From a virus (lineage: Duplodnaviria > Caudoviricetes): 62,293 nt of DNA. The position numbers and the translations under genes were made by a program. The stretch is taken from positions 1 to 62,293 of the IMG/VR virus record IMGVR_UViG_3300025687_000003, one strand, 5' to 3'. Shown here piece after piece: positions 2,549 through 40,299 of the stretch. The notes beneath the pieces were generated by a model, which did no database searches, was not told the DNA's origin, and worked only from the letters and a program-made list of their open reading frames with translations. Numbering within the stretch: the first letter of the stretch is position 1; every line of letters starts with the position of its first letter.

Positions 2549-2699
2549 TGGCACGGAACTTGAAACGCGGCTGCGCGTGCGCGCCCGCCCCCGATCAAGT
2601 CCTTTTTGACAGACTCAGCTTTAGATTTCAGGCCCCTTTAATTTTTTCGCCAACCCGAAAAACCAGTCGCGTGCGCGCGCCCGCGCCGCGCGCGTATAG
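2549..2699 (+). repeat. Long inverted repeat, copy A
   Basis: Reverse complement of 40147-40299 with 3 substitutions and one 2-bp indel. Confidence 0.97.
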
Positions 2700-2778
2700 T
2701 CGACCGAGGCGCTAAGCGCAAATCGCGATCGGACGATCGTCTGCGTGCGTAGCCCCCGTCGGGCTCATAGGGGAGGGC

Positions 2779-3684
2779 ATGGCCACCTATCAACGCTCTG
2801 GCGCCGCCCTACGACAGCCTGGACTCGCGGCGGAGATCGCGCGGCGGCCCCACGTCCGCTTCCTTCAGCCGAGGGACGGCTGGACGCCGGACGACTTCGC
2901 TCAGACCATCGCGCTGCTCAGCGCTACGCAGGACGCACCCATGAAGGTCGTTGCTTTGGAGTCGCCGTTCGCGGGCGACGTCGCCCGAAATGTCGCCTAC
3001 GCGGAGGCCTGCGTTCGCGAGTGCGCGCTGCGCTACGGCGAGGCCGCCTTCGCCATGCACCTGTACTTCCCTCACGCGCTGCAGGACCTGGACGACGCCG
3101 AGCGCAGCGTCGGTATCGAAGCCGGCCTGGCGCTGGTCGGCGCACTCCAGGCGGAGGCCTCCGTGGTCTACGTCGACCTGGGGGTGTCCTCCGGCATGCG
3201 CCAAGGCATCAAGGACGCCTGGGCCAAGGGCCGGGCCGTCGTCTTGGCCCGCCTGGGCGCAGGCCGCCTGCCGATCGAGAAGGGCGCCTGGGCCATGGTC
3301 GACTTCTTCGCGGAGAGCGCCAGCGGCTGGACGCCCCCGGAGCGGCCCGCCGCGCCGGCGGAGGCCCCGACGCCGGCGAAGCCCGCCCCGGCCGGGGCGG
3401 AGCCGGACCCCGAGGCGCCCTTCGACGTCGAGAGCCTCCAGGAAGGCGACGTCGTCATGATCCTGCACACAGGCACCCAGGATCAGCGGGACTACCGCTA
3501 CGAAGAGAAGGGACCCGACGCCGACCCCGAGGCGTTCAAGAAGAGCCTGCGAGAGCTGGGCAACGGCTGGACGATCCAGCTGGTCATGCGCGGCCAGACC
3601 ACGCTGTGGCGCATGCCTGCCCCTCCGGAGGTCTTCCACGAAGACCCCCCGCCGTACGTCGCCCCCACGAAGGACGCATCATGA
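2779..3684 (+). CDS. Nucleoside 2-deoxyribosyltransferase-like (DUF7768/DUF4406-like) protein with extra C-terminal domain
   Basis: GGAGG RBS; ESPFAGDVARNVAYA...AFAMHLYFP..L.D....ER..GIEAG...VYVDLGVSSGMRQGI signature. Confidence 0.72.
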   Translation: MATYQRSGAALRQPGLAAEIARRPHVRFLQPRDGWTPDDFAQTIALLSATQDAPMKVVALESPFAGDVARNVAYAEACVRECALRYGEAAFAMHLYFPHALQDLDDAERSVGIEAGLALVGALQAEASVVYVDLGVSSGMRQGIKDAWAKGRAVVLARLGAGRLPIEKGAWAMVDFFAESASGWTPPERPAAPAEAPTPAKPAPAGAEPDPEAPFDVESLQEGDVVMILHTGTQDQRDYRYEEKGPDADPEAFKKSLRELGNGWTIQLVMRGQTTLWRMPAPPEVFHEDPPPYVAPTKDAS

Positions 3685-3818
3685 GTCTCCTCGACTTCTT
3701 CCTGGCCGCGGTCGCCGTCTACGCAGGCTGGGCCTTCGCAGGCACAGGCTTCATCGTCGCCATCCTCCTGGTCGGAGGGGTCCTGTTCGTGCTGACATCC
3801 AGAATGGAGACCTCGTGA
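3681..3818 (+). CDS. Small membrane protein
   Basis: ATGA overlap; 45 aa almost entirely hydrophobic. Confidence 0.6.
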   Translation: MSLLDFFLAAVAVYAGWAFAGTGFIVAILLVGGVLFVLTSRMETS

Positions 3819-4147
3819 GCGACCTGTCGCCGTGGCAGCCGCAGCACCGTTCGGTGTCGTCGATGGCGGAGAGCGGCACGGCCCAGATCCAACGCCTCTA
3901 CGAGATGGCCTTGAACGCAGAACCCTCGCGCATCCCCGACAGGGTCTACGTCATGTCGTTTGAAGACTGGCGCGGCGTGAGGGGGTACATGCTCCGAGGC
4001 CGCCTCAACCCGCCGATCCCCGTCCTTCGCCACTGGTGGACGGGTTGGCTCGGTCGGACGAACAAGAGCTTCAAGCGCACTCGGCTGGCGGACATCCGCC
4101 GCAAGTGGCGCAACGCCATCACCCCGCCGCCTGCGGAGAAGGCATGA
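3815..4147 (+). CDS. Hypothetical protein
   Basis: GTGA coupling, GGAG RBS. Confidence 0.6.
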   Translation: MSDLSPWQPQHRSVSSMAESGTAQIQRLYEMALNAEPSRIPDRVYVMSFEDWRGVRGYMLRGRLNPPIPVLRHWWTGWLGRTNKSFKRTRLADIRRKWRNAITPPPAEKA

Positions 4148-4365
4148 GCAAGAAGAAGGCCCTGATCTGCGCTCTCCGCCGAAGAGGCGTTCGGGTTCTG
4201 CTACCCTCTCCAGGAGACGCAGACACCCGAGCAGTGCTTCGCCTTGGTTCCCCGAGGCACCACATCAAGTACCGCCTGCACCTCGTCGCTGCTGCCGCAG
4301 GAGACGTAGAGAAGACCGCGGCCTGTGTGGCCGAAACCATGGCGCGCGCCGCGCTCTCTACTTGA
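4144..4365 (+). CDS. Hypothetical protein
   Basis: ATGA coupling. Confidence 0.5.
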   Translation: MSKKKALICALRRRGVRVLLPSPGDADTRAVLRLGSPRHHIKYRLHLVAAAAGDVEKTAACVAETMARAALST

Positions 4366-7300
4366 TCTCGCGCAGTTCGTAGTCCGCGCCCAGCTGCTCG
4401 AGCGCCAGCTTCCCCGCGCCGCCCTGCACGGGCTTCGCCGGGGTGCCGAGCTCCAGGGCCCCGATCTCGCGCCAGACCTCCGGCTCCAGCGCCTGGGCGA
4501 AGAAGTCGTTGGCCTCGGTGCTGAGCGAGCGCCGGAGCACAGGCTCCAGGTCCCGCGCCACGCGGTTGACGCCCGGCATCAGGCGGGTGCCCCAGATGCG
4601 GCTGGCGGGCCCCCGGTAGCGGTAGCCGGTCTCCGACGCGGCGAACTTGTACTGCACGGGGATACCGACCATGCCCAGCAGCTTGGCCTCCGCCGGCGAC
4701 GCCGTCAGCTTCCCGTCGTAGCTCTCGTACGCCTTGTCCATGCCCAGCAGGCGCGCCGCCACCGGGTTCAGGAACGTCGCCGTGGTCGTCTTGAGGTGCT
4801 GCGCGTACTGCTCGGCCTCCAACCCGGTCGACCGGGTCCGGCCGGCGCCGTCGATGAACAGCGCCGTCTGCAGCGCCGTGTTGAACATCATCAGGCTCAG
4901 GTCGTGGGCCATGATGTTGGGCAGCGCCGTGGCCATGGTCGTGGTCGGCGCGCCCTTGTAGCGCACGCCCATCATGGCCTCCTCCTCGGTCGCCGGGCGT
5001 GTGATGAAGTGCTGCCCCGACGTCTGGCTCCACCACGGGAGCTCCCGCCGCAGCGACTCCATGTCGCCCTCGCCCTCCTCCGACAGCGCACGCGTGACGA
5101 TGTCTCCGGCCTTCCACAGGTCCATCATCCGCTTGGCCTTGGCGGGGTCCATGAGCGCCGCCACGGTGTGCCTGATGCCGTTCTCCCACATGGTCGGGAA
5201 CATCATCAGGGGGATGCCCGCACGCAGCTCCGTGATGGTGCCCGCGTGCGTGTAGCTCCAGTCGAAGTACGCTTCGCGGACCAGGGCGCCGGACTCCGCC
5301 GCGGTCGCTCCTTCCCTGATCCGGCGTTGCATGTACGCGGCGACCCGCTGCCCGGACTCCAGGTCGTCCATCCACCGGCTGTACCGAGTGGGGTTGGCCT
5401 TCAGCCCCTGCCACATGCGGTCGACCAACGACCCTCCGGGCATGCCGGTGGCCAGGGCCACGCCCGCGTCCTCCAGCAGCAGCGTGCTGGCCTTGGTGGA
5501 GTAGACCCCCTCCCGCGCCATCTCGCGGATCAGGTGCCCCTTCGTCAGCGACTCGCCGCGCTTGGTCACGAAGACGAAGTCGTCCGGCATGATGCGGCTG
5601 TCGAACATGCCGTTGACCCACATGTTCATGCGGCGGACCTGGAACGGCGGCAGGACGTTGTCGGTCTTGAACTTCTCGACGTTGTGCTTGATGATGCGGC
5701 TGAAGGCGTTGTCGATGGGCGCGTACCCGAAGTACACCGGGTCCGCCATCTGCCACGGCACCTGCCCCCGCGACGCGATCGTGTTCAGGACGGCGTCGAC
5801 GTGCCCGCGAGACGTCGAGACCTGGCCCATGACGCCGACCAGGTTCTTGTAGTAGTAGGAGGCCTTCGGGGCGATCAGCCCTGTCGTGAGGCCCCACCGC
5901 ATCAGCATCATGGCGCGCTGGGCGTTCGTCCCCAGCGTCTGCACGACGCTCGCCGTGGTGGCGGCCTTGACCGGGTCCGCCGCCTTCTCGAAGCGAGCGA
6001 GGCCCTCCTCCATCGCCCGCATGTACGACGTCGGGACCAGCGCCTTGATGGCGGCGTCCGCGTTCTCGACCCCGCGGAGGCCCTGCAGGTCCACGATCTG
6101 GCGCTGCTTCTGCGCCAGGCCGCGGGCGGTGCGCGGGGGCACGCCCAGCTTCTCCAGCACGGCCAGGCCCTGGGCCGCGTCGAGGACCTTCTCCTGGGAG
6201 CCGGCCAGGCCCTGGGCGCTTTGCAGCGCCCTGGCGTCGAAGCCCGCCACGCGAGCAGCCAGGGCGTCGAAGACGCGGTTCATGGACGCGGCGTTGACGA
6301 TGCCGGCCGCCATGAAGGTGTGGGAGCGCACGTCGTCGAACGCGGCTGCGCTCTCCCCGAAGGGCTTGCGCGACTGCGCTGCCAGGTCGTCGTACGTGAA
6401 GCGCGCGTACGACCCGTCCTTGCCCTTCTTGAACACCAGCTTGGCGAGGCTCTCGACGGCCGCGTCCGTGGCCTTGCCTGTGGACGTGCCGGTGCCGCCG
6501 AACGCCTTGGCGGCGACGTGGAAGGACTGCGCGTTCTTGGCCCCCTCCTCGCCGAGCTTGCGCCAGGCGGCGACCGCCTCCTCGAACGGCGTCGCAGCGC
6601 CTCCGCTTCGGAAGCGGGACGACCCGCCTGTCGGCAGAGGCTCCGTCAGGAAGCCCTTGATCTGCTTCACCGCGCTCTCTCGCACGGCCCACAGCTTCAG
6701 CACGTCCTTGCGCGGGAGCTTGGTCGCGGTCGGGTTCGCCTTGCGCCACGCCGCGGCCGCCTGCTCCAGGTCGACGCGCTTCATGACGTGCTTGTAGAAC
6801 ATCCCCATGGTGGCGCCCAGGTCGTCCAGACCCATCTGGCTGAAGCTCACGCCCATCCGAGCGATGTTCAGGGTCTCCTCGTTGCCGACCCCGAAGCGCT
6901 TGAGCAGCGGGCCGATCTTCAGGGTGCGGATCACGCCGTCGACGTGGGCGAACATCTGGTACGCCGCCGGGGCCCCGCGCAGACGCAGGTTCCCCAGCTT
7001 GGCCAGGTGGATGCCCATGGACCAGGCGCTGAACGGGTCCGCCGACGCCCGCGCGGCGAAGGTCCGGACCAGCTCGGAGAGCTCCACGTCCGTCGGCCGC
7101 ACGCCCTTCTCCAACGCCTGCAGCGTCTTGTCCCCGCGCAACGCCTCGAAGGCCTCCCCGCCGTACGTGCCGCGGAACTCCTTGAGCAGGTCCTCCGTCT
7201 TGGTGCCCTTGAAGCGGTAGAAGTCGTAGAGGCCGGCTTCTTCCGCCGTGCTGCCTCCGGCCCGGATCCGAGCCGCGGTCTTCTCCGAACTCTCCGCCAT

Positions 7301-9859
7301 GGCGCGAGCCAGGGAGCGCACGCCTCCGAAGCGCACGCCCGTCTGCAAGCCCTTCGCCTCCAGGATGGGGCGCTTGGCCCGGGACAGGCCCAGGTCCTTC
7401 GGCGAGCTCTTCAGCATCTCGTTCAGGTCCATCATGAAGCTGCGGTGAGCCACGCGCAGCTTCATGGCTCCAGGGGCTGCCGGCAACGCTCGCGTGGCCT
7501 CCACCAGCAAGGCCTCCAGGCCGTCCCCCGAGCTCTTCAGCGCCTCGCGCAAGGCGTAGATGGCCTTGTCGGCGACACCGCCGCTGGCCTGGATGTGGCG
7601 CTGCATCGCGTGCCGGTACCGCAGCTGCGCCTTGGCGAGCGCCTCGCGGGCCGCGTCGTCTCCCTTGGACGCCATTCGCGTCATGGCGTCGTCCAGTACG
7701 CGCGAGGCGGCCTTGAACTCCACCAGCGCAGGCAGGGCCCCCTCCGTTTTGGAGGCCCCGCGCACCAACGCACCCAGCTTCTCCAGGCGCTGGATGGACG
7801 TCGTCGCCAACGCCTCCTGCGCGCGCACGGCCGCCAGCTTGTACTGGAGCCCGACCATCTCCCGCTCGGCGACCTTCAGCACCGTCTCGGGGGGCAGGGT
7901 GTCGGGCAGGTGCTGGAAGCGCAGCGTGGGGGCCCAGCCGTCGACGACCTTGTCCGTGCCGAAGCTCTTGAAACGCGCGCGTCGCGGAGGCAGCGCGTCG
8001 GTCCCCGTCTTCTTGGGCAGGGAGGCCAGCAGCTCCTGGACGTTGCGCTCCGCCTTCTCCGCCGCCTTGGCGTGCTTCTGGATCCGGCCGGCGAAGTGCT
8101 GGGCCTGCGGACTGCCCCCCACGCCCTTGCGCACCTGCTCCAGCACGGCCTCTTTGGCCTGGGTGCCCAGGCGCTTGTCTGCGAGCAGCGCCTCGACCGC
8201 GCGCTCCTGCGTCGCCAGGTCCTCGCCCGCGGCACTCATCGACGCCTCGAAGTCTCGGAACGCCGCCAGCTCGCGCTCGGTCGCCCGAGCGTAGACCTCC
8301 AGCTTGGCGCCCTTGGCCACGCTGCGCGCCGTCTTCGCGGCGCCCAGGGCTCCGAACAGGATGTCCGGCGTCGACACGGCCACGGCCAGGGGGCCCAGCA
8401 CGCTGCGGGAGAACTCCTGCGCAGGCAGGGGCTCGACGCCCATCAGCGCCCCCAGGGGGCCCTGCACGGGCTGCATCTCCGTCATGGGTGTGCCGTCGCG
8501 GATCGCTCCGGGGAGCGCCGCCAAGCTGCGGCCCGGCCGGAGCAGGAACGCCTGGGCTGCGTCCTGGAAGTCCATCACGGCGTTGTCCGCCGGGTTGATG
8601 CCGACGATCTCCTCGACCGTGTCGAAGACGTTGCCGCCGGTCAATGCCTTCCAGCCCAGCCAGAAGCCCGACAGACTCATCGGGACCTGGTCCCGTTCGG
8701 CCATCTCGTAGCTGCTCTCGTTGTTGCGCACGCGGTCGATGACGTCAGGCGCCGCCAGGGCGCGGCTCACGGACTCGCTGTACGTCAGGCCGTCGTCGGC
8801 GTCGCGCAAGCCCTTGGCGTGCTCCTGCACCGCCAGCACGGGGAAGACGAAGTCCTGAGCGACCTTGTGGAGCAGGTTCCAGTCGCCTCGCCCGTAGCCG
8901 TGGTGCGGGTAGAGCATGGCCGCGGTCGCCCGCGCAGGCACAAGACCGATGCGTTCGGGGATCCGGCCGATGGCGCCGGCGTCGTCGATGAGGCCCGGGG
9001 CGACCCACTCGATCGGCGCCTTGCCGGTCGTGGCCTTGATCGCCGCGGCAGCAACGGGCCCCGGCAGGGGCATCGCCATCAGGTCGAACGCCAGTCGCGC
9101 GGGAGAGCCCTCCTCGAGCACGCCCTCGGTCATGTCCAGGACAGCGCGCTGCAGGTCGGCCGCGCGCCCGGCCAGGTTGCCTTCGACGCTGGCCGTCGGG
9201 AGCAGTCCTGCAGCCAGCGCCTCGTTGTCCTGGTCGGGCGTCAGCGCCCGGGTCGGGTCCATCGCCGGGGGCGTGGCGTCCCGATCTTCGATCAGCGCTG
9301 CGGTGTAGCGCACGGCTTCGTTTCGGAGCCGCGCTCGGGTCGCCGCCTTTTGCTCGTTCGTCAGCGGCTGCCCCAACGCGATGATCGACCGCGCCTCCTT
9401 CTCGATCAGCCGGGCGTGGACCTGGTACAGCGTGGACTCCGGGTCGTCGAAGCTCCCGAACTCCAGCCGGTCGATCATCACGCCCGTCTGAGGGTCGGCC
9501 TGCGGCACCGACCGGGTCGTGATGCCCGTGTAGTCGAAGTCCACGCCAGGAGGGGGCGCCGGCGCCGCCACCTGGAAGGGGTCGTCCGTGGTCAGGTCTG
9601 CCGCCCCTGAGTATCGCCGGGCGGTCCTGTCCGCGTGGTCCTTGCGATGCTCCTCGGCGCGGTAGTCCAGGTCGTCCGGCAGGGCGATAGGGCGCAGAGG
9701 CACCTTGATGCCTCCCGCAGCCTCGGGGATCGGACCAAGACCGAGGGGCACCTTGATGCCCTCCACAGCCTCGGGGATCGGGCCCAGGGCAGACGCCCCC
9801 TGCACATCGCTGTGGGGCTGCGGCGTCTGGAGCTCGGGAGGCAGGCGGATCGTGGACAT
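4358..9859 (-). CDS. Large internal virion/DNA ejection-like protein (1833 aa)
   Basis: Very large helical Ala-rich ORF at the end of a podovirus-like structural module; function inferred from size and position. Confidence 0.65.
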   Translation of the reverse strand: MSTIRLPPELQTPQPHSDVQGASALGPIPEAVEGIKVPLGLGPIPEAAGGIKVPLRPIALPDDLDYRAEEHRKDHADRTARRYSGAADLTTDDPFQVAAPAPPPGVDFDYTGITTRSVPQADPQTGVMIDRLEFGSFDDPESTLYQVHARLIEKEARSIIALGQPLTNEQKAATRARLRNEAVRYTAALIEDRDATPPAMDPTRALTPDQDNEALAAGLLPTASVEGNLAGRAADLQRAVLDMTEGVLEEGSPARLAFDLMAMPLPGPVAAAAIKATTGKAPIEWVAPGLIDDAGAIGRIPERIGLVPARATAAMLYPHHGYGRGDWNLLHKVAQDFVFPVLAVQEHAKGLRDADDGLTYSESVSRALAAPDVIDRVRNNESSYEMAERDQVPMSLSGFWLGWKALTGGNVFDTVEEIVGINPADNAVMDFQDAAQAFLLRPGRSLAALPGAIRDGTPMTEMQPVQGPLGALMGVEPLPAQEFSRSVLGPLAVAVSTPDILFGALGAAKTARSVAKGAKLEVYARATERELAAFRDFEASMSAAGEDLATQERAVEALLADKRLGTQAKEAVLEQVRKGVGGSPQAQHFAGRIQKHAKAAEKAERNVQELLASLPKKTGTDALPPRRARFKSFGTDKVVDGWAPTLRFQHLPDTLPPETVLKVAEREMVGLQYKLAAVRAQEALATTSIQRLEKLGALVRGASKTEGALPALVEFKAASRVLDDAMTRMASKGDDAAREALAKAQLRYRHAMQRHIQASGGVADKAIYALREALKSSGDGLEALLVEATRALPAAPGAMKLRVAHRSFMMDLNEMLKSSPKDLGLSRAKRPILEAKGLQTGVRFGGVRSLARAMAESSEKTAARIRAGGSTAEEAGLYDFYRFKGTKTEDLLKEFRGTYGGEAFEALRGDKTLQALEKGVRPTDVELSELVRTFAARASADPFSAWSMGIHLAKLGNLRLRGAPAAYQMFAHVDGVIRTLKIGPLLKRFGVGNEETLNIARMGVSFSQMGLDDLGATMGMFYKHVMKRVDLEQAAAAWRKANPTATKLPRKDVLKLWAVRESAVKQIKGFLTEPLPTGGSSRFRSGGAATPFEEAVAAWRKLGEEGAKNAQSFHVAAKAFGGTGTSTGKATDAAVESLAKLVFKKGKDGSYARFTYDDLAAQSRKPFGESAAAFDDVRSHTFMAAGIVNAASMNRVFDALAARVAGFDARALQSAQGLAGSQEKVLDAAQGLAVLEKLGVPPRTARGLAQKQRQIVDLQGLRGVENADAAIKALVPTSYMRAMEEGLARFEKAADPVKAATTASVVQTLGTNAQRAMMLMRWGLTTGLIAPKASYYYKNLVGVMGQVSTSRGHVDAVLNTIASRGQVPWQMADPVYFGYAPIDNAFSRIIKHNVEKFKTDNVLPPFQVRRMNMWVNGMFDSRIMPDDFVFVTKRGESLTKGHLIREMAREGVYSTKASTLLLEDAGVALATGMPGGSLVDRMWQGLKANPTRYSRWMDDLESGQRVAAYMQRRIREGATAAESGALVREAYFDWSYTHAGTITELRAGIPLMMFPTMWENGIRHTVAALMDPAKAKRMMDLWKAGDIVTRALSEEGEGDMESLRRELPWWSQTSGQHFITRPATEEEAMMGVRYKGAPTTTMATALPNIMAHDLSLMMFNTALQTALFIDGAGRTRSTGLEAEQYAQHLKTTTATFLNPVAARLLGMDKAYESYDGKLTASPAEAKLLGMVGIPVQYKFAASETGYRYRGPASRIWGTRLMPGVNRVARDLEPVLRRSLSTEANDFFAQALEPEVWREIGALELGTPAKPVQGGAGKLALEQLGADYELREIK

Positions 9860-9891
9860 GCCCGGAGCCTAACACCCAGGACGGACGGGGA

Positions 9892-11753: not shown

Positions 11754-11757
11754 GGAC

Positions 11758-31620: not shown

Positions 31621-31648
31621 ATAGTGGTTGGCGTCCACGGGGCACACC

Positions 31649-31822: not shown

Positions 31823-31912
31823 CTCTCACTACAAAGCGAACGCCAGCCCGCAAAGGGGATCCGTCTGGATCGTGGCGTCCTTACAAACCAAACTCCAGAT
31901 AGGAGGGACGAT

Positions 31913-32293
31913 ATGGGCATCCGCCTTATCCGTCCACGGTACGCGGACCCCGACCGTGTACGCCATGGAACCATGGTTAGAGAGCCCACCCCGACAGCGG
32001 GTTGGGCATATGGCACGGGTGAAACCGTCGCCGAACGCAAGTCGGCACAAAGGCGCGGTACGCGCTGGGCTGCAGGCAAGGCCGCAGAGGCCCGTTTCTG
32101 GCGGGCGATGGAACACGGTCCGCGTCTCAACATGGCGCACCTGCAGGACCTGAGGCACGCGCGCCCATGCGGCAGCGAACCCGTGCACCTGCCCGCCATG
32201 GACGAATTCTGGGACCGCGATCGGTGGACGCTCGCGGGTCCCGATCGCGCGGCCAAGCGCCGCAAGAAAAAGCGCGGCGGCAAGCGCTACTAA
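31913..32293 (+). CDS. Basic hypothetical early protein
   Basis: AGGAGG RBS; K/R-rich tail. Confidence 0.7.
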   Translation: MGIRLIRPRYADPDRVRHGTMVREPTPTAGWAYGTGETVAERKSAQRRGTRWAAGKAAEARFWRAMEHGPRLNMAHLQDLRHARPCGSEPVHLPAMDEFWDRDRWTLAGPDRAAKRRKKKRGGKRY

Positions 32294-32384
32294 CGCACCT
32301 GAGAGCCCCGGCGGAACCCCCGCCGGGGCACCTCGCGTTGGGGTGCATGCACCCGCCAACACCCGTCCGCCCTCCCCCGCTCGA

Positions 32385-32435
32385 GATCCGCGCATGGCAC
32401 ACGGCTGCCGGGGATCCGCGCATGGCACACGGCTG
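32385..32435 (+). repeat. 23-bp direct repeat, two copies
   Basis: GATCCGCGCATGGCACACGGCTG at 32385-32407 and 32413-32435. Confidence 0.92.
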
Positions 32436-32570
32436 ACGTCCCCTGAAACCGGAGGTTGCTCTATACCCTAAGCATCGCGTAGCCCTACGTTAGGTAGGGC
32501 TACGCCCTCTCCGGATACCCCCACCCCGCCCGGCTTGCCGGCGCGGGGTGCCCTTGTTTCTGGAGGCTCT

Positions 32571-32738
32571 GTGCCGATCAACAGACGACGGCGTCCGTCG
32601 AAGCCGACGACGCCCGCCACCACCGCACGCCCCGTCCGCACGGGCCACGGGTCCATCGCGGACCTGCTGTTCATCCGTGAGACGTGCAACGGCACGTCCA
32701 CGTGCCCGTGCTTCGCGTGCTTGCGGCGGCGCAAGTGA
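32571..32738 (+). CDS. Small Cys-containing hypothetical protein
   Basis: GGAGG RBS; C-terminal CxCxxC. Confidence 0.55.
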   Translation: MPINRRRRPSKPTTPATTARPVRTGHGSIADLLFIRETCNGTSTCPCFACLRRRK

Positions 32739-32928
32739 GCCGCGCTTTGTGGCGGCTCGCCCTTGCGGCTGCCCAACTCACGACCGTCGCATGGCTCGCG
32801 GGCGTGCGCCCGTCGCACGTGCTGGCCCTGCTGTGAACGGCTGGACCGGCCTTGTCTGGCTGCTGTCGCTCACGGCCATGTGCCACGTGCTGGCGGCAGC
32901 GCTGTCCTGAACCCCTGGAGGTGCCCCT

Positions 32929-33249
32929 ATGCCTGAAGGCTACACAGTCGGTCTGAACCTGGACCGCGTGAACGTCGCACGATTGCATGCGATCATCCAG
33001 GACCTGAGCCCAAACGGGCGTTGGTACTGCGGCACGATCGGCAGCTACAAGCGCGCGGCCCAGCTTGGGGTCCGGCGCTCGGCGTTGGCTCCGACTATCG
33101 CGTACTGCTGGAACCGGATCGCTTACCTGTCCTGCAAGGAACGCGGGGACAAGGCGGGCATGAAGGTCTACCGCCACAGCATGGACCTCTGTCTGGACAG
33201 CATGGCAAAAGCGGACACATCTGTGTGCTGGGAGGTGCCCCTCGCGTAG
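32929..33249 (+). CDS. Hypothetical protein
   Basis: GGAGGT RBS. Confidence 0.7.
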   Translation: MPEGYTVGLNLDRVNVARLHAIIQDLSPNGRWYCGTIGSYKRAAQLGVRRSALAPTIAYCWNRIAYLSCKERGDKAGMKVYRHSMDLCLDSMAKADTSVCWEVPLA

Positions 33250-33310
33250 ACCCACAAACCCCTGACCCGGAGTTCTTTCTGGTTGAACGTGGGCGCACGG
33301 CTGCAAGGTC

Positions 33311-33775
33311 GTGCGCCCTCTCCAACCTGGAGGCCCTGTGCCTGTTACCTCAGACGAGGACGCCGTGCGCGTCCTACGTCCCTTGGTCTGTAAGGACCGC
33401 GAAGCTGAGCGGCTCGCCGTGCTGTGCATCGGTGCACGTGGCGGCGTCGTGGATGCTGCCGTGCTGACGGTCGGCAACGACAAGTTCTGCATCGTCTGCC
33501 CGAAGCAGATCTTGCGCTACGCCCTGACGCGTAGTCGGCCCGTGGCCGGCATCGTGTTGGCGCACAACCACCCGAGCAACGACCCGACGCCCAGCCGGCA
33601 GGACATCGACTGCACCCAGCGTGTGCAGGCGGCTGCCGAGGCCGTGGGGCTGCGCCTCCTGGACCACGTCGTGATCTGCGACGACAGCCACAAGTCTCTG
33701 GCCCGCATGGGCCACATCGACGGGGGCGTGGCCCCCATGCTTCTCGCCTACGAGCCCGGAGTCCGTGGTGTCTGA
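33311..33775 (+). CDS. radC: RadC-like JAB/MPN domain protein
   Basis: E...LAHNHPSNDPTPSRQD...LLDHVVI. Confidence 0.93.
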   Translation: MRPLQPGGPVPVTSDEDAVRVLRPLVCKDREAERLAVLCIGARGGVVDAAVLTVGNDKFCIVCPKQILRYALTRSRPVAGIVLAHNHPSNDPTPSRQDIDCTQRVQAAAEAVGLRLLDHVVICDDSHKSLARMGHIDGGVAPMLLAYEPGVRGV

Positions 33776-34433
33776 CCTGTTCAAAGGCGTGCGCCGAACG
33801 CACGCCGTCAAGCGCGGCAGCGCCCTTGCGAAAGACCTGGGAATCTCCGCAGGGGGCTCGGTCTCCGTCAAGGCAGGGCTCTCCTTTTTGCGAGGAAACA
33901 AAGCCCCATACCTGTCGGTGACGGCCGAAGTGCGAAACGTCCGGGGTCGTGTCATGAGCGCCGGCCAGCAGCACGACCTCGTGCTGCGCTTGTGGCCGGA
34001 CCTCGAAGACCTGTGCGCGATGCACTTGTGGACCGTGGGCGAAGGGCCCCTGCACTACGAGGCGAACGCCCTCTACTGGTGGGAGATGCACCACGGGTGG
34101 GGCAAGTGGAAGCCCCGCGAGGGACAGGACCCTGCTGCTTTCTTTCGGCGACACACCCGCTGGGGGCTGCGCTACCCGCACGACCAGGACGAAGACCCTC
34201 TGACGTGGTCCCTGTCCGACGCCGGCGAGCCCGACCCCTCCGACGGGTGGCTCGCTGTCGGCGGGGTGTGGACCCGCAACGGAGAGGCGTGGCGGGAGCA
34301 CGCGATCTCTGTGCTCCGAGACAAGCTGCGGTTCATCCTACGCAGCCGCCAACCGACGCTGCAAGGCGCGTTGGTTCACGCACTGATGGACCACGGCATC
34401 GACCCTGACTGGAACCCCGGGAGGTCTGCATGA
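33765..34433 (+). CDS. Hypothetical protein
   Basis: GGAG RBS; PYLSVTAE...G..HD...PLHYEANALYW. Confidence 0.75.
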   Translation: MVSDLFKGVRRTHAVKRGSALAKDLGISAGGSVSVKAGLSFLRGNKAPYLSVTAEVRNVRGRVMSAGQQHDLVLRLWPDLEDLCAMHLWTVGEGPLHYEANALYWWEMHHGWGKWKPREGQDPAAFFRRHTRWGLRYPHDQDEDPLTWSLSDAGEPDPSDGWLAVGGVWTRNGEAWREHAISVLRDKLRFILRSRQPTLQGALVHALMDHGIDPDWNPGRSA

Positions 34434-34684
34434 CCCGTAACAACAGCTACGTCAGCGCAGCCAGCCGTGAGGCTGAGTTGCTTGCCATCATCGCCGAAGA
34501 CGAGGGCTACGAGTCCATCGACCAGCTGGTCGAAGACCAGGCCCTGCGCTCTGTGCAGTACGGCGTGTGCGCCTCGTGCGAGGCCACGACCTCCCGCGTG
34601 GAGCCTGACCAAGACGCCGGGTGGTGCCACGCGTGCGAGGCGCGCAAGGTCAAGTCCATCGGCATCCTGTCGGGGCTGTGCTGA
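34430..34684 (+). CDS. Small zinc-ribbon protein
   Basis: CASC...VEPDQ..GWCHAC; GGAGG RBS. Confidence 0.78.
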   Translation: MTRNNSYVSAASREAELLAIIAEDEGYESIDQLVEDQALRSVQYGVCASCEATTSRVEPDQDAGWCHACEARKVKSIGILSGLC

Positions 34685-34763
34685 CACCCAACGCCCTGGA
34701 AACAGGGGGTTGAGCAAGGCCCACGGCGGAGCCGTGGGTCCTGTCCAACCTGGAGCACAAAGC

Positions 34764-34961
34764 ATGAAATTCTACGTGTACGCAGGGCACGCCCCGCTGG
34801 GCCAAGAGCCTTTGGGGACGGCAGACCGCTGCATCTGGACAGACCTCAAAACGCCAGCCGGCGCACGGCGTCGAGCGTCGCGCCTTTTCCCGCAAGGCTT
34901 CAGCCTGTACAGATTCACGAACTTCTACAACAACGCCACGTTCGTGAAGGTGGGGCCATGA
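34764..34961 (+). CDS. Hypothetical protein
   Basis: GGAG RBS, ATGA coupling downstream. Confidence 0.7.
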   Translation: MKFYVYAGHAPLGQEPLGTADRCIWTDLKTPAGARRRASRLFPQGFSLYRFTNFYNNATFVKVGP

Positions 34962-35701
34962 CCCCCAAAGGCATCGTCGTCTACGAGGACCCAAGCGCCC
35001 TGAACGGCGACCCGATCGTGGCCATCGCCACGAATCTGAAGGTCCCGAGCAGGAACGCCAAGACCGGCAAGGTGGTCCAGGTCTGGATCCTGCCCGCTGT
35101 CGAGCGTCCGCACGAGGCTGTGAGGTCCGGCGCGGACGCCAGCGTGTGCGGGGACTGCAAGCATCGGCCCTCGTTGGAGGGCACGTGCTACGTGCCGACG
35201 TTCCGTGCGCCGGGTGCCGTGCACGCTGCCTTCCTTCGAGGGTCGTACGCCAGGCCCTCGCCGACCGAGGCTCGAGCTCTGCTGGCAGGGCGCGTGGTCC
35301 GTCTCGGGGCGTGGGGCGACCCCGTCGCCGTGCCGCTGGTCGTGTGGCGCGCGCTGCTGCGCGACGTCAAGGGCTGGACCGGGTACACGCACCAATGGCG
35401 GCTGCCCACGGCCCGGCCCTACCAGGCGCTGCTCATGGCGTCGGTCGACAGCCGCGCAGAGTACGACGCCGCGCGGGCTGACGGGTGGCGCTGCTTCGGG
35501 GTGCACGCACAGACGGAGCCCCGGCCCGAGATGCCCGGCCTCCGGCTGTGCCCGGCGTCGGACGAAGCGCCGACCAAAGACTCCGTCACCTGCGCCACGT
35601 GCAGGCTGTGCGACGGCAACGACCGAGGGGCACGCCGCCCGTCGGTGATCATCGCTGTGCACGGGGCGAAGTCCCGTCGCATGGCCCCATCTTGGAGGTG
35701 A
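34958..35701 (+). CDS. GP88-like (DUF7227-like) Cys-rich protein, radical-SAM-related fold suspected
   Basis: NAKTG, C..C......CY, VRLGAWGD, GYTH, ASVDS, CPA...TCATCRLC, AVHG. Confidence 0.7.
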   Translation: MTPKGIVVYEDPSALNGDPIVAIATNLKVPSRNAKTGKVVQVWILPAVERPHEAVRSGADASVCGDCKHRPSLEGTCYVPTFRAPGAVHAAFLRGSYARPSPTEARALLAGRVVRLGAWGDPVAVPLVVWRALLRDVKGWTGYTHQWRLPTARPYQALLMASVDSRAEYDAARADGWRCFGVHAQTEPRPEMPGLRLCPASDEAPTKDSVTCATCRLCDGNDRGARRPSVIIAVHGAKSRRMAPSWR

Positions 35702-36048
35702 CCGTGGCATCCCACGAACACACCACATTCGCCCAAGCCTGCGAACGGCTGGACATCCAAGGCACGTTGGAGCGTATCCCCGGCACAGCGTTGGCGGACA
35801 CCGCTTCCACTTCGGACCCCGACAGCCCTGCCTACGACGGCGAGACCCTCGTGTGGTGGGACGGACAGCGCACCATCACAGACGGGCGCGGACGACCGGT
35901 CTACGTGGACCGGGACGGGTGCGAGCACGTCTGGGACGGCTCGGGCTTCGTGGGTGTCGTCGCGACCACGCACCACGCCGTGGTCCCCGTCGGCGTGCGC
36001 TTCCCCCGCATCTGGCAGGCGATCGCCTTGCTTCGGAGTCTCCGGTGA
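35698..36048 (+). CDS. Hypothetical protein
   Basis: GGAGG RBS, GTGA coupling. Confidence 0.65.
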   Translation: MTVASHEHTTFAQACERLDIQGTLERIPGTALADTASTSDPDSPAYDGETLVWWDGQRTITDGRGRPVYVDRDGCEHVWDGSGFVGVVATTHHAVVPVGVRFPRIWQAIALLRSLR

Positions 36049-36320
36049 AACACGCTTACGCGTACTGCCCTCCGAAGGTTGGGCGCAAGATCAACCCCTT
36101 GTTGAAGGGGCTGGACGACGCGCAGATTTCCTTCCTCCGACACCGCCTCGCAGGGGCGATGCTCGCCTTCCACCGCGCAGAAGAAGCAGCGGCGGCAGAG
36201 GCGGCGACGCAGGGCTGGATCCTGTTCCAGCACTCGGCCCACGACGAATTCGTCGCGGCGAAAGCCGCCCTCCGAGACGCCCGCATGCGCGTTGCCTTCG
36301 CGGAGGCGTTCCGTGCCTGA
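36045..36320 (+). CDS. Hypothetical protein
   Basis: GGAG RBS, GTGA coupling. Confidence 0.65.
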   Translation: MKHAYAYCPPKVGRKINPLLKGLDDAQISFLRHRLAGAMLAFHRAEEAAAAEAATQGWILFQHSAHDEFVAAKAALRDARMRVAFAEAFRA

Positions 36321-36418
36321 GACCGCAGCCCACATCGCCATCATCACTGCCCTGCACATGGTCGGCTTCGCGCTGTCCCTCTGGATGCTGCGCGATGTCT
36401 GACCCCAAGGAGACACCG

Positions 36419-36724
36419 ATGGAACCCACCCCCCAGCGCCACCTGTTCGTGGTGACGCACGCTCGTGGCTTCGAGCCCGGAGACCCCGACGCGGCCGTGA
36501 AGCTCGACAAGCCCAAGCTCTTTGGCAAAGGCCACGGCACCGACCAGCCCGGCGTGCCCTTCCGGCTGTACGACGACGACGACATCCTCTACTACGAGGG
36601 GTTCCTGTTCGACCGAGGGCACGCCGACGCCATGGCGAGCTTCGCCCCGCTGGACTGGGCCATGGCCGACTCCGGCTGCACCCGCCTGGACCTGTTCGAG
36701 CGCGGCGAGTGGGGGCGGCTGTGA
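36419..36724 (+). CDS. Phage hypothetical protein
   Basis: AAGGAG RBS; FRLYDDDDILYYEG...FAPLD motif. Confidence 0.75.
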   Translation: MEPTPQRHLFVVTHARGFEPGDPDAAVKLDKPKLFGKGHGTDQPGVPFRLYDDDDILYYEGFLFDRGHADAMASFAPLDWAMADSGCTRLDLFERGEWGRL

Positions 36725-36768
36725 GCAAGACCCCGCGAACCCAAGGAGACACCGATGGAGGCCTTGTG

Positions 36769-37218
36769 ATGAAAGACGCTTTGACTGTGCTGCGCCGCAT
36801 CCACAAGCGCGCCCAAGACGTGGGGCTGCGCGATGTCGACGCCGACCTGTCCGCCGAGGCCGGCATGGACGGCAGCTACGCCCGCCTGTTGCAGGCGGCC
36901 CGGGACCTGGAGACCCTGCGCGTGGTCAACGCCATGGGTCGGCCCTTCAACGTCCGCATTGTGAGACAGGGCGGAGGGTACGGCGCGGACGACTGCCTGA
37001 CCCACGACAACGCCGACCCGCTCGTGGAGTTCTACGACGCAGCAGCAGACCCCGCCAAGTTCGGGCCTCGGGGGCAGTTCGTCAGCCGCTACTTCCTCTC
37101 CACGCTGGAGGGGAGGTCTGTCCCTGCCGGCCTCAACCTGCACGGCGGTGTGAGCGTGTGGCGTGTCAGCGCTGCCAACGTGGCGGCTGCCATCGCCTAC
37201 GCCCGGAGCCGTCCATGA
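36769..37218 (+). CDS. Phage hypothetical protein
   Basis: GGAGG RBS; PLVEFYD...GQFVSRYF motif. Confidence 0.72.
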   Translation: MKDALTVLRRIHKRAQDVGLRDVDADLSAEAGMDGSYARLLQAARDLETLRVVNAMGRPFNVRIVRQGGGYGADDCLTHDNADPLVEFYDAAADPAKFGPRGQFVSRYFLSTLEGRSVPAGLNLHGGVSVWRVSAANVAAAIAYARSRP

Positions 37219-37427
37219 AGCCCCGCATCCACAACCCCACAGCGTGGGTCATCCGTCGCTTGGACGAGGGCGATGCCAGCGCCAAGACGTTGGCCGCCGA
37301 GGTCGGCGTGTCTCCGGACACAGCCCGCCGCTGGGTCAAAGCGCTCGTCAGCGAGGGCATCGTCGAGGCCAAACGGAAGGAGAGGGGCAGCGACGGCAGA
37401 CCCGCCACGATCTGGGGGCTGGCGTGA
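37215..37427 (+). CDS. Winged-helix DNA-binding protein
   Basis: SAKTLAAEVGVSPDTARRWVKALVSEGIV...GRPA. Confidence 0.85.
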   Translation: MKPRIHNPTAWVIRRLDEGDASAKTLAAEVGVSPDTARRWVKALVSEGIVEAKRKERGSDGRPATIWGLA

Positions 37428-37729
37428 GCCGACACCAACAGCGCCACCGCGTCGTGGCCCTGACCCAAGAGCAGGCGTCGACCCTGGCGTCTGCCTTCCG
37501 CGCTGCGCACTTCAAAGCCCGCGTCTTCACCGACGCCCCGGCCGAAGTGGTGCGCCACAAGCAGCCGCCCCTGAGCCTCGGCGATGCCATCGGCTACGAG
37601 CTTGTGGCGTGGGGCGTGGGCGACCTGGCCCACATCCGCACGGAGACAGACGGCGTGCCTCTCGTGGTGCGCTGCAAGCTGTGGCGCGTCGTCGCCACCC
37701 GACCCCGACCGCAGAAGGAGGCGTCGTGA
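37424..37729 (+). CDS. Hypothetical protein
   Basis: GTGA coupling at both ends. Confidence 0.6.
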   Translation: MSRHQQRHRVVALTQEQASTLASAFRAAHFKARVFTDAPAEVVRHKQPPLSLGDAIGYELVAWGVGDLAHIRTETDGVPLVVRCKLWRVVATRPRPQKEAS

Positions 37730-38397
37730 ACGTCACAACCGAAACCTTGCTCGGCAGGAGCGCCTGCGCCCCCGGCATCGCCTGGTTCGAGGCCGCGTTC
37801 CCTGACGGCTTCGCCGGGGAGTGGACGGCAGACCACCAGAGATGGCTGATCGCCAGCGGCGGGGCCCGGTGGCTGGGCTGGGCCTGGGCCGAGGACCTGG
37901 TCCCGGCCTGGTCCATGGCGGGGCAGGACTGGTCCCGCGCCGACCTGCTCGGGGCCGACCTGCGCTGGGCCGACCTGCGCTGGGCCGACCTGTCCCGGGC
38001 CGACCTGTCCGGGGCAGACCTGTCCCGGGCCAACCTGACCGGGGCCAGCCTGTCTGGGGCCAACCTGACCGGGGCCAACCTGTCCCGGGCCAACCTGTCC
38101 CGGGCCAACCTGTCCCGGGCCAACCTGTCCGGAGCCAACCTGCTCGGAGCCAACCTGCTCGGGGCCAACCTGCGCGGGGCCAACCTGCGCGGGGCCAACC
38201 TGCGCGGGGCCCACCTGTCCGGGGCCTGCCTGACCGGGGCCAACCTGCGCTGGGCCAACCTGCGCTGGGCCAACCTGCGCGGGGCCCACCTGTCCGGGGC
38301 CTGCCTGACCGGGGCCAACCTGCGCTGGGCCAACCTGCGCTGGGCCAACCTGCGCCAGGCCGACCTGCTCGGGGCCCGGGGGCTGCCCCCGAGCTGA
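37726..38397 (+). CDS. Pentapeptide-repeat protein
   Basis: AAGGAGG RBS; about 30 A(D/N)Lxx repeats with 15-bp periodicity. Confidence 0.95.
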   Translation: MNVTTETLLGRSACAPGIAWFEAAFPDGFAGEWTADHQRWLIASGGARWLGWAWAEDLVPAWSMAGQDWSRADLLGADLRWADLRWADLSRADLSGADLSRANLTGASLSGANLTGANLSRANLSRANLSRANLSGANLLGANLLGANLRGANLRGANLRGAHLSGACLTGANLRWANLRWANLRGAHLSGACLTGANLRWANLRWANLRQADLLGARGLPPS

Positions 38398-38465
38398 CGC
38401 CACGCCACGTGCGAGGCCGCCCGCACCCCACCCCACCCCTCCCCTCCCCTCGCCATGGAGCCCTC

Positions 38466-38633
38466 GTGCCCAAGCAAGTGATCCGCTGGTACTTCGCCCT
38501 CCTCCTCGCCGTCGTCGTCGGCCTCGGGGCCACGCTGTGGAGCGTGGTTCGAGCCCCGTCTGTCGACGCGCCGGCCTCGGCTGCGGTGCCATTCCCCGAC
38601 CCCTGCACCCTGAACGCCGTGGAGTGCCTGTGA
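38466..38633 (+). CDS. Small membrane protein
   Basis: GGAG RBS; single hydrophobic helix. Confidence 0.6.
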   Translation: MPKQVIRWYFALLLAVVVGLGATLWSVVRAPSVDAPASAAVPFPDPCTLNAVECL

Positions 38634-39115
38634 CCCCCGCCGCCGCCCTGCGCGCCATCATCCGAGCCCGCGACCACCACGCGGAGCACGCCGAGTACCC
38701 GCCCGACACCGTCCGCACGGACCAAGGCTTCGACGACTGGGCTGCCGACCTGGCAGCCCAGGCGCTGAAAGGCGCGGGCACCGGTCACCGCCTGAAGCTG
38801 GCGGCCCACGCCGCCCTCGACGCCCGCGCCTCGCGCGTGCTGGACTGCGAGGTCCTGAACGTGCACTCCGTGCTGCGCCGCATCGACGGCGATGACGTGC
38901 GCTACTACGACGCGGCCCTGGTCTGGCGTCGGCCTCGCCTCCGGGGGGTGGAGCACGGCACGCACCGAGCAGAGGTCGCGCTGCTGCCCGACGGCTCGGT
39001 GCTCGGCAAGCCGACCCTGTACGGGGGTCACTACGGCTTGCCGCTGGAGCGCGTGCTGCTGGACTACGCCAACCGCTGCAAGGACGTCGACGTCCTGCGC
39101 CCGGCGGACGGATGA
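38630..39115 (+). CDS. Hypothetical protein
   Basis: GGAG RBS, coupled at both ends. Confidence 0.65.
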   Translation: MTPAAALRAIIRARDHHAEHAEYPPDTVRTDQGFDDWAADLAAQALKGAGTGHRLKLAAHAALDARASRVLDCEVLNVHSVLRRIDGDDVRYYDAALVWRRPRLRGVEHGTHRAEVALLPDGSVLGKPTLYGGHYGLPLERVLLDYANRCKDVDVLRPADG

Positions 39116-40065
39116 CCAACCCCATCGCAACCAGCGTCGACGGCTTCTCCGGGCTGGGCGGCACCGCCGTCGGTCTCCGGGCTGCAGGCGTGGACGTCTT
39201 GCTCGCAGCCAACCACTGGCGGTGGGCGGTGGACGCCCACCGGCTGAACCACCCCGACACCAGGCACGTGTGCCAGGACCTGCGCCAGGCCGACTTCAGC
39301 ACGTGGCCGAAGGCCGACCTTGGGGTGTTCACCCCTGCCTGTCAGGGCCACGCTGCCTCCGCCAAGCCTGCGCGCAAGCGCTCAGCGAGCGTGCGGCGAA
39401 CGCACGACGCTCTGCGGGGCAGCGCCTGGGCCGTGCCGGAGTACGCCGAGGTCCAACGCCCTCGCTTCCTGGTCGTGGAGAACGTCTCGAAGGATGGAGG
39501 CTTCCGCAACTGGGCGCTGTACAAGCACTGGTGCGGCGCGCTTCGGACGCTGGGCTACCGGCTCACGGAGAACGTGCTGATGGCGAGCCGCTGGGGCGTG
39601 CCACAGCGCCGCGAGCGCCTGATCATCGTCGGGTGCCTGGACCAGGAGATCGAGCTCCGGGATCCCGACGTGCCCGAGCCTGCGTTCGGGCCGTGCATCG
39701 AATGGGGCCAAGGGCGTTGGCGCCCCGTCGACGACAAGCTGCCCGCCGGGCCCCGCCGCCGCATCGCCAGGGCTCGAGCCAAGGGTCTCGGAGACCGCTT
39801 CCTGATCCAGAACGTGACGGGACACAGCGGCGTCTCTCTCGACGAACCCATCCGCACCATCACCACCGCCGATCAGTGGGCAGTGGTGGACGGGGACAGG
39901 TATCGCACGCTCACGTTGCGGGAGAACCTCCGGGCGCAGGGCTTCCCCGAGAGCTACCGCCTGCCCGGAGGGCGACGCAAGGACTGCATCAGGGGAATCG
40001 GCAACGCGGTACCTCCGCCCTTAGCTACGGGGATCGTAAGCGCCCTCCGCCGGGCCGTAGCGTAG
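39112..40065 (+). CDS. dcm: DNA (cytosine-5)-methyltransferase
   Basis: FSGLGG (motif I), PACQG (IV), ENV (VI), QRRER (VIII), GNAVPP (X). Confidence 0.95.
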   Translation: MTNPIATSVDGFSGLGGTAVGLRAAGVDVLLAANHWRWAVDAHRLNHPDTRHVCQDLRQADFSTWPKADLGVFTPACQGHAASAKPARKRSASVRRTHDALRGSAWAVPEYAEVQRPRFLVVENVSKDGGFRNWALYKHWCGALRTLGYRLTENVLMASRWGVPQRRERLIIVGCLDQEIELRDPDVPEPAFGPCIEWGQGRWRPVDDKLPAGPRRRIARARAKGLGDRFLIQNVTGHSGVSLDEPIRTITTADQWAVVDGDRYRTLTLRENLRAQGFPESYRLPGGRRKDCIRGIGNAVPPPLATGIVSALRRAVA

Positions 40066-40066
40066 G

Positions 40067-40106
40067 CTAAGCCTTACGGCCCTTAGCTAAGGGCCGTAAG
40101 GCTTAG
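40067..40106. repeat. Perfect 40-bp palindrome
   Basis: CTAAGCCTTACGGCCCTTAG|CTAAGGGCCGTAAGGCTTAG. Confidence 0.97.
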
Positions 40107-40146
40107 AGAAACCCGTAACTTTCTCTCCCGGTCCCTTCGTGCTGTG

Positions 40147-40299
40147 CTATACGCGCGCGCGGCGCGGGCGCGCGCACGCGACTGGTTTTTCAGGTTGGCG
40201 AAAAAATTAAAGAGGCCTGAAATCTAAAGTTGAGTCTGTCAAAAAGGACTTGATCGGGGGCGGGCGCGCACGCGCAGCCGCGTTTCAAGTTCCGTGCCA
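40147..40299 (-). repeat. Long inverted repeat, copy B
   Basis: Reverse complement of 2549-2699. Confidence 0.97.

Follow-up and report, generated by a model that had tools for sequence, protein, structure and literature searches.

The DNA analysed here, referred to as the window, is the 62,293-nt IMG/VR virus record IMGVR_UViG_3300025687_000003 of an uncultured freshwater tailed phage, and this report concerns a near-identical inverted repeat of about 150 bp that it carries as copies A and B (Table 1). The record has a 127-nt terminal direct repeat, so the unit length is 62166 bp, and the GC content of the genome is 69%. As an earlier note on this DNA had described, the copies differ by three substitutions (2618 G/A, 2635 C/T and 2656 C/T in A/B, all within an AT-rich core) and by one 2-bp (CG) indel at the inner end, and they divide the circle into arcs of 37.4 and 24.4 kb. 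A repeat search returned the pair as 146 nt at 98% identity (2549-2694 and 40154-40299), with similarity that ends abruptly on both sides. This pair is far beyond chance; the runner-up among inverted pairs has 47 nt at 70%.

Genes of the window were called by a codon-usage model for which the 12 longest frames served as the training set, and 80 products were compared with PHROGs and Pfam and 55 with NCBIfam. The map is arranged around a gene-poor hub of ~1.7 kb (30215-31912), whose sole candidate gene is a weak 100-aa open reading frame (ORF) at 31143-30841. The structural operon, with genes for the large terminase, the portal and, among others, a 1833-aa protein, runs leftward out of the hub from 30214 to 4358, and a rightward block of small genes, from 31913 to 40065, encodes RadC, a helix-turn-helix protein, a pentapeptide-repeat protein and a C5 methylase. 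Two outer operons are headed by the repeat. The one at copy B contains the replication module, with a 666-aa phrog_1735 protein, an 888-aa DUF5906 primase-helicase-like protein, a PD-(D/E)XK nuclease and a family A DNA polymerase; the one at copy A crosses the circle junction to an Amidase_3 endolysin and small genes, down to 60925. The copies are inverted because cassettes of the same orientation head two outer operons that converge. A short rightward operon (2779-4147) also leaves copy A. No tRNA genes were found in the window, and no RNA polymerase or sigma factor of the phage was recognisable in the profile searches run.

Both copies are intergenic, and the TGGCAC end of each adjoins the start of an outward-reading operon, gene 1629-2468 (-) at copy A and gene 40310-40477 (+) at copy B, again as the earlier note had it. 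At copy B an AAGGAGG ribosome-binding site stands 1 nt past the repeat and the ATG 11 nt past it. On the other side of copy B lies a palindrome (Table 1) whose hairpin is likely a two-way terminator without a U tract; it has the word TAAGCCTTAC in common with the hub (30609-30620). With this hairpin upstream and 10 nt to the start codon, a promoter of the replication operon has no room other than the cassette.

Each copy reads as an ordered unit, with a putative sigma-54 (RpoN)-type promoter at the outer edge that points inward, a GC box at its predicted start, an AT-rich core of ~80-90 bp and a second GC box. The core is rare in this genome, as had been claimed: when the whole window was scanned, 60-nt segments with less than 45% GC were met only at the two cores, and alternating GC tracts do flank them. 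The likeness of the core to an integration host factor (IHF) site is weak. The sequence GATCAAGTCCTTT is 2 mismatches from WATCAANNNNTTR and is not among the 4 matches in the window at ≤1 mismatch, and the IHF consensus is not enriched, since 33 of 100 shuffles reach that count.

Table 1. Positions of the repeat, its parts, the promoter-like sites and the outer operons in the window.
Feature	Position	Strand	Remarks
Cassette copy A, 151 nt	2549-2699	+	Divergent gap between genes 1629-2468 (-) and 2779-3684 (+)
Cassette copy B, 153 nt	40147-40299	-	Between C5 methylase gene 39112-40065 (+) with its hairpin, and gene 40310-40477 (+)
Sigma-54-type motif TGGCACGGAACTTGAAACG, copy A	2549-2567	+	Inward, toward gene 2779-3684 (215 nt)
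Same motif, copy B	40281-40299	-	Inward, toward hairpin and 3' end of methylase gene; no co-oriented gene after it
GC box 1, CGCGTGCGCG, copy A	2574-2583	+	At or near predicted sigma-54 start site
GC box 2, CGCGTGCGCG, copy A	2668-2677	+	Direct repeat of box 1, 94 bp away; the boxes flank the AT-rich core
GC boxes, copy B	40171-40180 and 40265-40274		
AT-rich core, copy A	2587-2668		Minimum GC 0.38 in 60 nt; holds the three substitutions
AT-rich core, copy B	40172-40263		Minimum GC 0.33
Perfect 20+20 palindrome	40068-40107		Between methylase gene and copy B; predicted hairpin ~-36 kcal/mol on either strand, z ~-5
Sister promoter P1 (putative), TGGCACGGGATTTGAA(ACGCG)	31371-31386	-	Faces ORF 31143-30841 and structural operon
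Sister promoter P2 (putative), TGGCACGGGGGCTGCA	31605-31620	+	Faces ORF 31913-32293 and rightward small genes
Fifth motif, TGGCACGCTGCGTGCA	60818-60833	+	Convergent gap at the ends of the two outer operons
Sigma-70-like candidate	40195-40223	+	Copy A equivalent 2653-2625, minus strand
Outer operon 1	40310-60753	+	Headed by copy B; replication module
Outer operon 2	389-2468	-	Headed by copy A; three genes without assigned function

The copy-A region is present at least partly in 20 listed public runs from 14 studies, mostly freshwater and some marine or estuarine, and none of these 20 is recorded as RNA. Contigs of four runs (X5, X6, X7 and X10) were aligned to 1200-4400, which gives evidence at the level of contigs only. 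These contigs end inside the repeat (2549-2578 and 2665-2694), as expected for 31-mers, and none bridges a copy. Each side of the repeat is joined to both flank types in X5, X7 and X10, and the two arcs have depths of 144.6 and 144.3 in X5; the duplication is therefore real, and the misassembly that the earlier note had named as a refutation is ruled out. An artefact, that is a chimera of two genomes with 146 bp in common, or else an insertion resembling a miniature inverted-repeat transposable element, would fit a record that comes from metagenome assembly, and the three single-nucleotide polymorphisms (SNPs) could partly reflect mixed strains. Against the chimera stand the two junction types in three further runs and the equal depth of the arcs. 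The mobile element, for its part, lacks terminal inverted repeats and a target-site duplication at either copy: the cassette ends are TGGCACGG... and ...GCGTATAG, with flanks GCGCGC/TCGACC at copy A and CCTCCT/CACAGC at copy B. Nor is it found elsewhere, given that its 25-nt core word has 0 matches in viral contigs and 0 in metagenome contigs, and that the pattern of promoter plus GC box has 0 in genome contigs. Explanations of this kind are largely excluded and are the least probable of those weighed here.

The SNP sites also indicate how the copies evolve. Only the copy-B form is present in X5 (204.8 of a depth of 204.8) and X6 (14.3 of 14.3), only the copy-A form in X7 (0 of 6.56 for the other), there on a contig of 908 nt, of which 762 nt lie outside the repeat and belong to the copy-B outer flank, and both forms in X10 (2.1/5.8). 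The haplotype is thus a property of the population, not of the copy; either gene conversion homogenises the copies, or mixed strains partly account for the A/B difference in the record. In X6, two co-existing variant contigs show 4 and 22 differences over the 146 nt that adjoin copy A on its outer side, and the 146-nt repeat is of the copy-B form there. The segment 2433-2541 of that run, which covers the leader and first codons of gene 1629-2468, is hypervariable beside an invariant repeat.

Each cassette copy starts exactly at a sigma-54-type -24/-12 motif, TGGCACGG-N3-TTGAAACG, which belongs to a small family. The pattern TGGCACGNNNNTTGCA at ≤1 mismatch has 5 matches in the window where 0.35 are expected; none of 100 shuffles gave as many. 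All five sites are intergenic, and three of them face a co-oriented gene start 215-293 nt downstream. The word TGGCACG alone is intergenic in 7 of its 10 occurrences, compared with ~10% of the genome that is intergenic. P1 and the cassette have the extended form TGGCACGG-N3-TTGAAACGCG in common. The sigma-54 consensus, given as TGGCA(T/C)(G/A)nnnnTTGCA in the available part of PMC11704786, is matched exactly in its -24 half and its spacing by all five sites. The -12 element varies, being TTGAA in the cassette and P1, CTGCA in P2, GTGCA at 60818 and ATGCA in G004, a related fragment described below.

To our knowledge, few phages are known to run on host sigma-54 polymerase. A sigma-54-like promoter has been reported in Pseudomonas phage YuA, according to the accessible text of PMC10914365, and it was the one documented case of a sigma-54-type phage promoter that we found in open-access papers and bioRxiv. 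The window phage resembles known sigma-54 promoters, YuA included, in the TGGCACG at -24, in the exact spacing to a TTGNA -12 element, and in sites that are intergenic, face genes and stand at several operon starts. It differs in the TTGAA of the cassette and P1, in having neither an activator gene nor a shared enhancer, and in a promoter that is embedded in a duplicated 146-bp unit, with the AT-rich tract downstream and not upstream.

A relative was reached via the terminase. G004 is a 37.5-kb fragment with 58% GC, syntenic with the window from polymerase to terminase at ~25-60% protein identity. Its sequence TGGCACGGATAATGCA stands 210 nt before the start of an operon, between the gene of a 1826-aa protein and a homologue of gene 61732-61953, and this neighbourhood is the same as that of copy A. 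The sole CGCGTGCGCG in the 37.5 kb of G004 directly adjoins its promoter, with 0.26 expected from composition. Its most AT-rich tract (minimum GC 0.22) likewise adjoins the promoter site, on the upstream side. Beyond promoter and box the leaders of the window and G004 are unlike: 10 of 300 shuffles reach the alignment score, and that score is the box itself. As far as sequence comparison goes, the trio of promoter, GC box and AT-rich tract is conserved in its genome neighbourhood; its internal order is not.

We read the repeat as an intergenic transcription-control cassette of ~150 bp, present in two copies, and on the sequence features we judge this reading to be about evenly balanced between right and wrong. 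Perhaps half of that weight goes to a specific mechanism of facing starts with paired boxes as operators, in which sigma-54 dependence, an outward start, interference and looping are the parts that we infer. The features on which the reading builds are themselves observed, namely the repeat, a family of motifs placed between genes, the pair of boxes, the uniqueness of the AT-rich tracts, the orientation logic and the homogenisation of the copies. The cassette reading explains the promoter family, the sharp outer boundary at -26 and the same orientation toward operons that leave no other room for a promoter.

According to the mechanism, the cassette would switch two gene blocks, replication and the endolysin side, together. 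Outward transcription of both outer operons would begin in the AT-rich core, and the sigma-54-type promoter would fire back across that core; from copy A this would lead to expression of genes 2779-4147, and from copy B to a ~200-nt RNA ending at the 40068-40107 hairpin. The inward and outward starts would face each other ~40 bp apart. Once the sigma-54 promoters are activated, and P1 of the structural genes with them, outward transcription would be turned down in both operons simultaneously, and the paired GC boxes, with a spacing of about nine helical turns, are candidate operators for a looping regulator. Recombination between the copies would keep them alike. It would invert the 37-kb arc as a neutral by-product, since no operon would be parted from an identical cassette.

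Known switches offer a parallel in architecture. Coliphage 186 has a face-to-face promoter switch in pR/pL, and in the gal repressosome an operator pair loops the promoter region. The resemblance would lie in facing starts ~40 bp apart and in an AT-rich promoter region enclosed by identical boxes at a distance of about nine helical turns. The difference is that the outward promoter of the window phage is a weak candidate and any regulator of its boxes hypothetical; the likeness is one of architecture only.

Several observations weigh against the cassette reading. The conserved C of the -12 element is replaced by A in the cassette and P1. Paralogues of rpoN whose promoters deviate at -12 or -11 are reported for Bradyrhizobium and Rhodobacter (PMC3162934). 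Similarity between the copies stops at -26, so they share no upstream enhancer. The sigma-54-type promoter of copy B faces no gene. Sigma-54 promoters are silent without an ATP-driven activator, and a six-frame Pfam search of the genome returned no Sigma54_activat domain, although the host may supply an activator; searches of the same kind returned no Sigma54_DBD or Sigma54_CBD domain either, with positive controls detected. As for the outward start, a consensus tool found 0 sigma-70-type promoters in the two copy regions, a looser scan gave one outward sigma-70-like candidate, TTGGCG-17 nt-TGAAAT, with a weak 8/12 match, and no outward sigma-54 motif was found in the cassette. The near-identity over 146 bp exceeds what a promoter needs. 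The G004 promoter is directed at the lysis-side operon, with the AT-rich tract upstream of it, the reverse of the window. Finally, the earlier note had proposed a search for the element in related phage genomes, and in none of the collections searched did a relative with the cassette turn up.

Some of the same facts would suit sigma-54 polymerase that docks without making RNA, whereby a stable closed complex at the outer edge would act as a roadblock or repressor of the outward operons, or the repeat as a holoenzyme sink. The motif lies 10 to 80 nt before the first outward gene and overlaps its 5' leader, the repeat is without an upstream enhancer, the phage without an activator, and the copy B promoter without a gene. 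However, co-oriented genes are found downstream of copy A (215 nt), of P1 and P2 and of the G004 site, as for working promoters, and we consider docking improbable.

The position of the AT-rich tracts raises the question of replication. Twin transcription-activated origins, a form of the twin origins that the earlier note had suggested, could be envisaged, in which a promoter is followed by an A+T-rich unwinding element that its transcript would open or prime, and the GC boxes are possible initiator sites for the primase-helicase; this is the main alternative, if a doubtful one. The only AT-rich tracts of a genome with 69% GC lie directly downstream of a promoter motif, and the order of motif (2549-2567) and core (2587-2668) places promoter and unwinding element within ~100-150 bp. 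Copy B stands just upstream of the replication module, and the most AT-rich tract of G004 adjoins promoter and GC box as well. There are precedents: the available text of PMC3016281 describes T4 oriF and oriG as origins made of a promoter plus an unwinding element, and that of PMC3485210 describes SPP1 oriL and oriR as two distant origins with one initiator. The window phage is like them in having a promoter and then an AT-rich tract in a compact unit, and two distant units per genome. The T4 origins, as far as that text goes, have little sequence in common and use MotA/sigma-70 promoters, whereas the units of the window are identical and inverted. Other points disfavour origins at the repeat. 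The order of promoter and AT-rich tract is reversed in the relative G004 and thus not conserved; cumulative GC skew has its extremes near 13, 31 and 62 kb and none at 2.6 or 40.2 kb; and an origin could equally well lie in the hub at 30.2-31.9 kb, where a 19-nt motif occurs five times.

The inward promoter could also serve to make a small RNA or a leader. The earlier note had suggested a duplicated regulatory cassette or a non-coding RNA; of the two, the cassette fits best, with a sigma-54-type motif as at other operon starts and the same orientation at the operon heads, and the RNA found no backing in Rfam. A duplicated RNA of ~125 nt would run from the sigma-54-type start and be closed by pairing of the GC boxes, free-standing at copy B and forming the leader of gene 2779 at copy A. 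The predicted transcribed part does fold somewhat better than shuffles (z = -2.2, equalled by 2 of 200 shuffles, in copy A; z = -1.9, by 7 of 200, in copy B), the SNP at 2656 turns a G-C into a G-U pair in a 7-bp hairpin of copy A, and the 40068-40107 hairpin could terminate the copy-B transcript. This weak fold signal arises because the GC ends pair. The whole cassette folds no better than shuffles on either strand (z = 0.14 and -0.50), the AT-rich core alone gives z = 0.19 and 0.35, and the inner structures predicted for the copies differ. Rfam 15 gave 0 matches at the gathering score over the window and, for the cassette, none at E ≤1; three weak Rfam hits lie on or end in the hairpin neighbouring the cassette. 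An RNA as the function of the repeat appears no more probable than docking.

Concerted evolution bears on the last of the earlier proposals, flip-flop sites that generate genome isomers by 2-micron logic. Since the copies evolve in concert, recombination between them is indicated, and inversion isomers that arise through homologous recombination as a by-product are plausible. What did not find support is a dedicated system, with sites selected to invert the 37-kb arc in the manner of 2-micron or Hin/Gin. The repeats are inverted and near-identical, and their homogenisation across populations needs recombination between them. Isomers produced by homologous recombination are described for the lytic phage phiMatilda in the text seen of bioRxiv 10.64898/2026.10.21.760668, where the repeats are 1.5-18 kb long compared with 146 bp in the window phage. 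Yet six-frame searches with PF00589 (Phage_integrase) and PF00239 (Resolvase) gave 0 matches at E ≤1, with controls detected, nor was either family met among the proteins scanned, in agreement with the note's own failure to recognise a site-specific recombinase. Inversion, moreover, alters no link between promoter and gene and so switches nothing, and the cassette has a promoter anatomy of its own. Dedicated flip-flop sites therefore seem very improbable.

Flip-flop across inverted repeats is familiar from chloroplast genomes and from the FLP/FRT system of the yeast 2-micron plasmid. The window phage is like these and phiMatilda in that inverted identical repeats split the genome, flipping breaks no operon and the copies are concerted. 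It is unlike the 2-micron system in having no FLP-like recombinase, and its contigs show no bridging of either copy. A combined reading, in which sigma-54-fired twin origins in inverted orientation are kept identical by recombination that flips the 37-kb structural/early arc against the 24-kb replication/lysis arc, appears rather improbable. If true, the phage would have two equivalent genome isomers and would be a small recombinase-free analogue, in a tailed phage, of the herpesvirus, chloroplast and 2-micron design.

The search for other carriers of the cassette used words, patterns and protein anchors. The pattern of promoter plus GC box occurs at 3 metagenome loci, G004 and two of one unrelated sequence with 46-47% GC (L021 806-834 and L022 2001-2029), in which TGGCACGGAAGTTGCAACGCGCGTGCGCG follows an AT-rich tract and three further TGGCAC-type motifs lie within 300 nt behind it. 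The pairing of a sigma-54-type motif with a GC box may recur outside this phage group, or the match may be a chance one. The promoter word TGGCACGGNNNTTGAAACGCG was met at 3 viral loci, which were set aside as unrelated: they have 46-54% GC and no protein match, and by eye the motif apparently lies in reading frames. Among the anchors, gene 1629-2468 yielded no relative; 6 loci were reached through the large terminase, of which 3 records were searched and 0 had the cassette; the 1833-aa protein, alone or as an alignment, led only to G004; and the 666-aa protein gave 5 loci at 42-45% identity, none with the motif. Gene 40662-41099 gave 1 locus, on a 159-kb contig with three small genes in common and without the cassette. 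The three small genes after copy B (40489-41413) recur there, in L003 / G001 157696-158410, at 59-88% protein identity; G001 is a viral contig of 57% GC that has them at its end and otherwise nothing in common with the phage, and the set looks like a small mobile gene cassette. A blastn-short search of the cassette against 74 loci (640,621 bases) gave no match at E ≤0.05. The phage collection gave no match for the cassette region and one 149-nt match at 77% for the replication arc.

The hub, where P1 (31386, minus) and P2 (31605, plus) stand back to back, has features of its own. A 19-nt motif, AGTGATTCCNGGCACTTAG, occurs there in 5 copies (30763-31485) against 0.02 expected, laid out as two inverted pairs, one around P1 and one between P1 and P2. 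Judging from their sequence and layout, these motifs look like enhancer or operator sites, or origin iterons. Their 12-nt core recurs in the cassette, as a lead only: the pattern was written after the cassette had been seen, one SNP hits the site, and the total count does not exceed chance expectation (25 of 100 shuffles). Two strong hairpins at 30262-30290 and 30394-30418 (z ~-5 and -4.6), built on GTTTCAAACC...GGTTTGAAAC, lie between P1 and the start of the structural operon and contain the TTGAAAC word of the promoters; they may be attenuators or binding sites. The words TTGACA, TTGACG and TTGACA stand within 24 nt at 30500-30523 (+) and resemble a cluster of -35 boxes, and 30540-30850 is rich in CTTAC/CTTAG words. 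The leader between P2 and the first rightward gene contains a perfect 31-nt direct repeat, GCCCCTCAGGACAGCCCCACAAGGGGCAACG, at 31649-31679 and 31792-31822, each copy of which can fold into a small hairpin.

Some of the gene products deserve mention. The 1833-aa protein (4358-9859, minus), encoded last in the structural operon, matched nothing in PHROGs, Pfam or NCBIfam and has a homologue in G004, the 1826-aa protein, at 28% identity; it may be an ejected internal virion protein. The 666-aa protein (41766-43766, plus) belongs to phrog_1735 (E = 5e-220), a family with members in 554 phage records, including phages of Pseudomonas, Stenotrophomonas, Caulobacter, Salmonella, Klebsiella and Bacillus, whose annotations conflict. 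Sequence searches of the PDB with this protein and a 577-aa protein gave nothing usable, and no PDB relative of the 666-aa protein. The pentapeptide-repeat protein (37726-38397, plus; Pfam E = 1e-79), with a 15-bp periodic array at 37849-38448, is encoded among early-type genes as a neighbour of the C5 methylase, and may be a DNA mimic or an anti-defence protein. Within the PD-(D/E)XK nuclease gene, a (GACCCC)n array at 49379-49459 encodes a run of Asp-Pro repeats. A host search with a piece of the endolysin (Atlas) returned generic amidase clusters only, and the best bacterial match of the methylase, at 67%, lies on a 3-kb contig of a proteobacterial metagenome-assembled genome in a different context.

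What is unusual in this phage is a 146-bp cassette that is identical in inverted copies, with an AT-rich core and boxes downstream of the promoter, together with a -12 variant common to three promoters and the lack of an activator gene. No description of this combination of features was found in open-access papers or bioRxiv. A lytic-looking phage that has such motifs at all its control points and encodes no activator raises the question of who fires them, and the cassette, with two boxes, one AT-rich core and one promoter, is a compact unit of 150 bp in which this can be tested. The population data indicate that a short non-coding phage repeat is homogenised, which points to ongoing intragenomic recombination and predicts genome isomers that short-read assemblies would hide.

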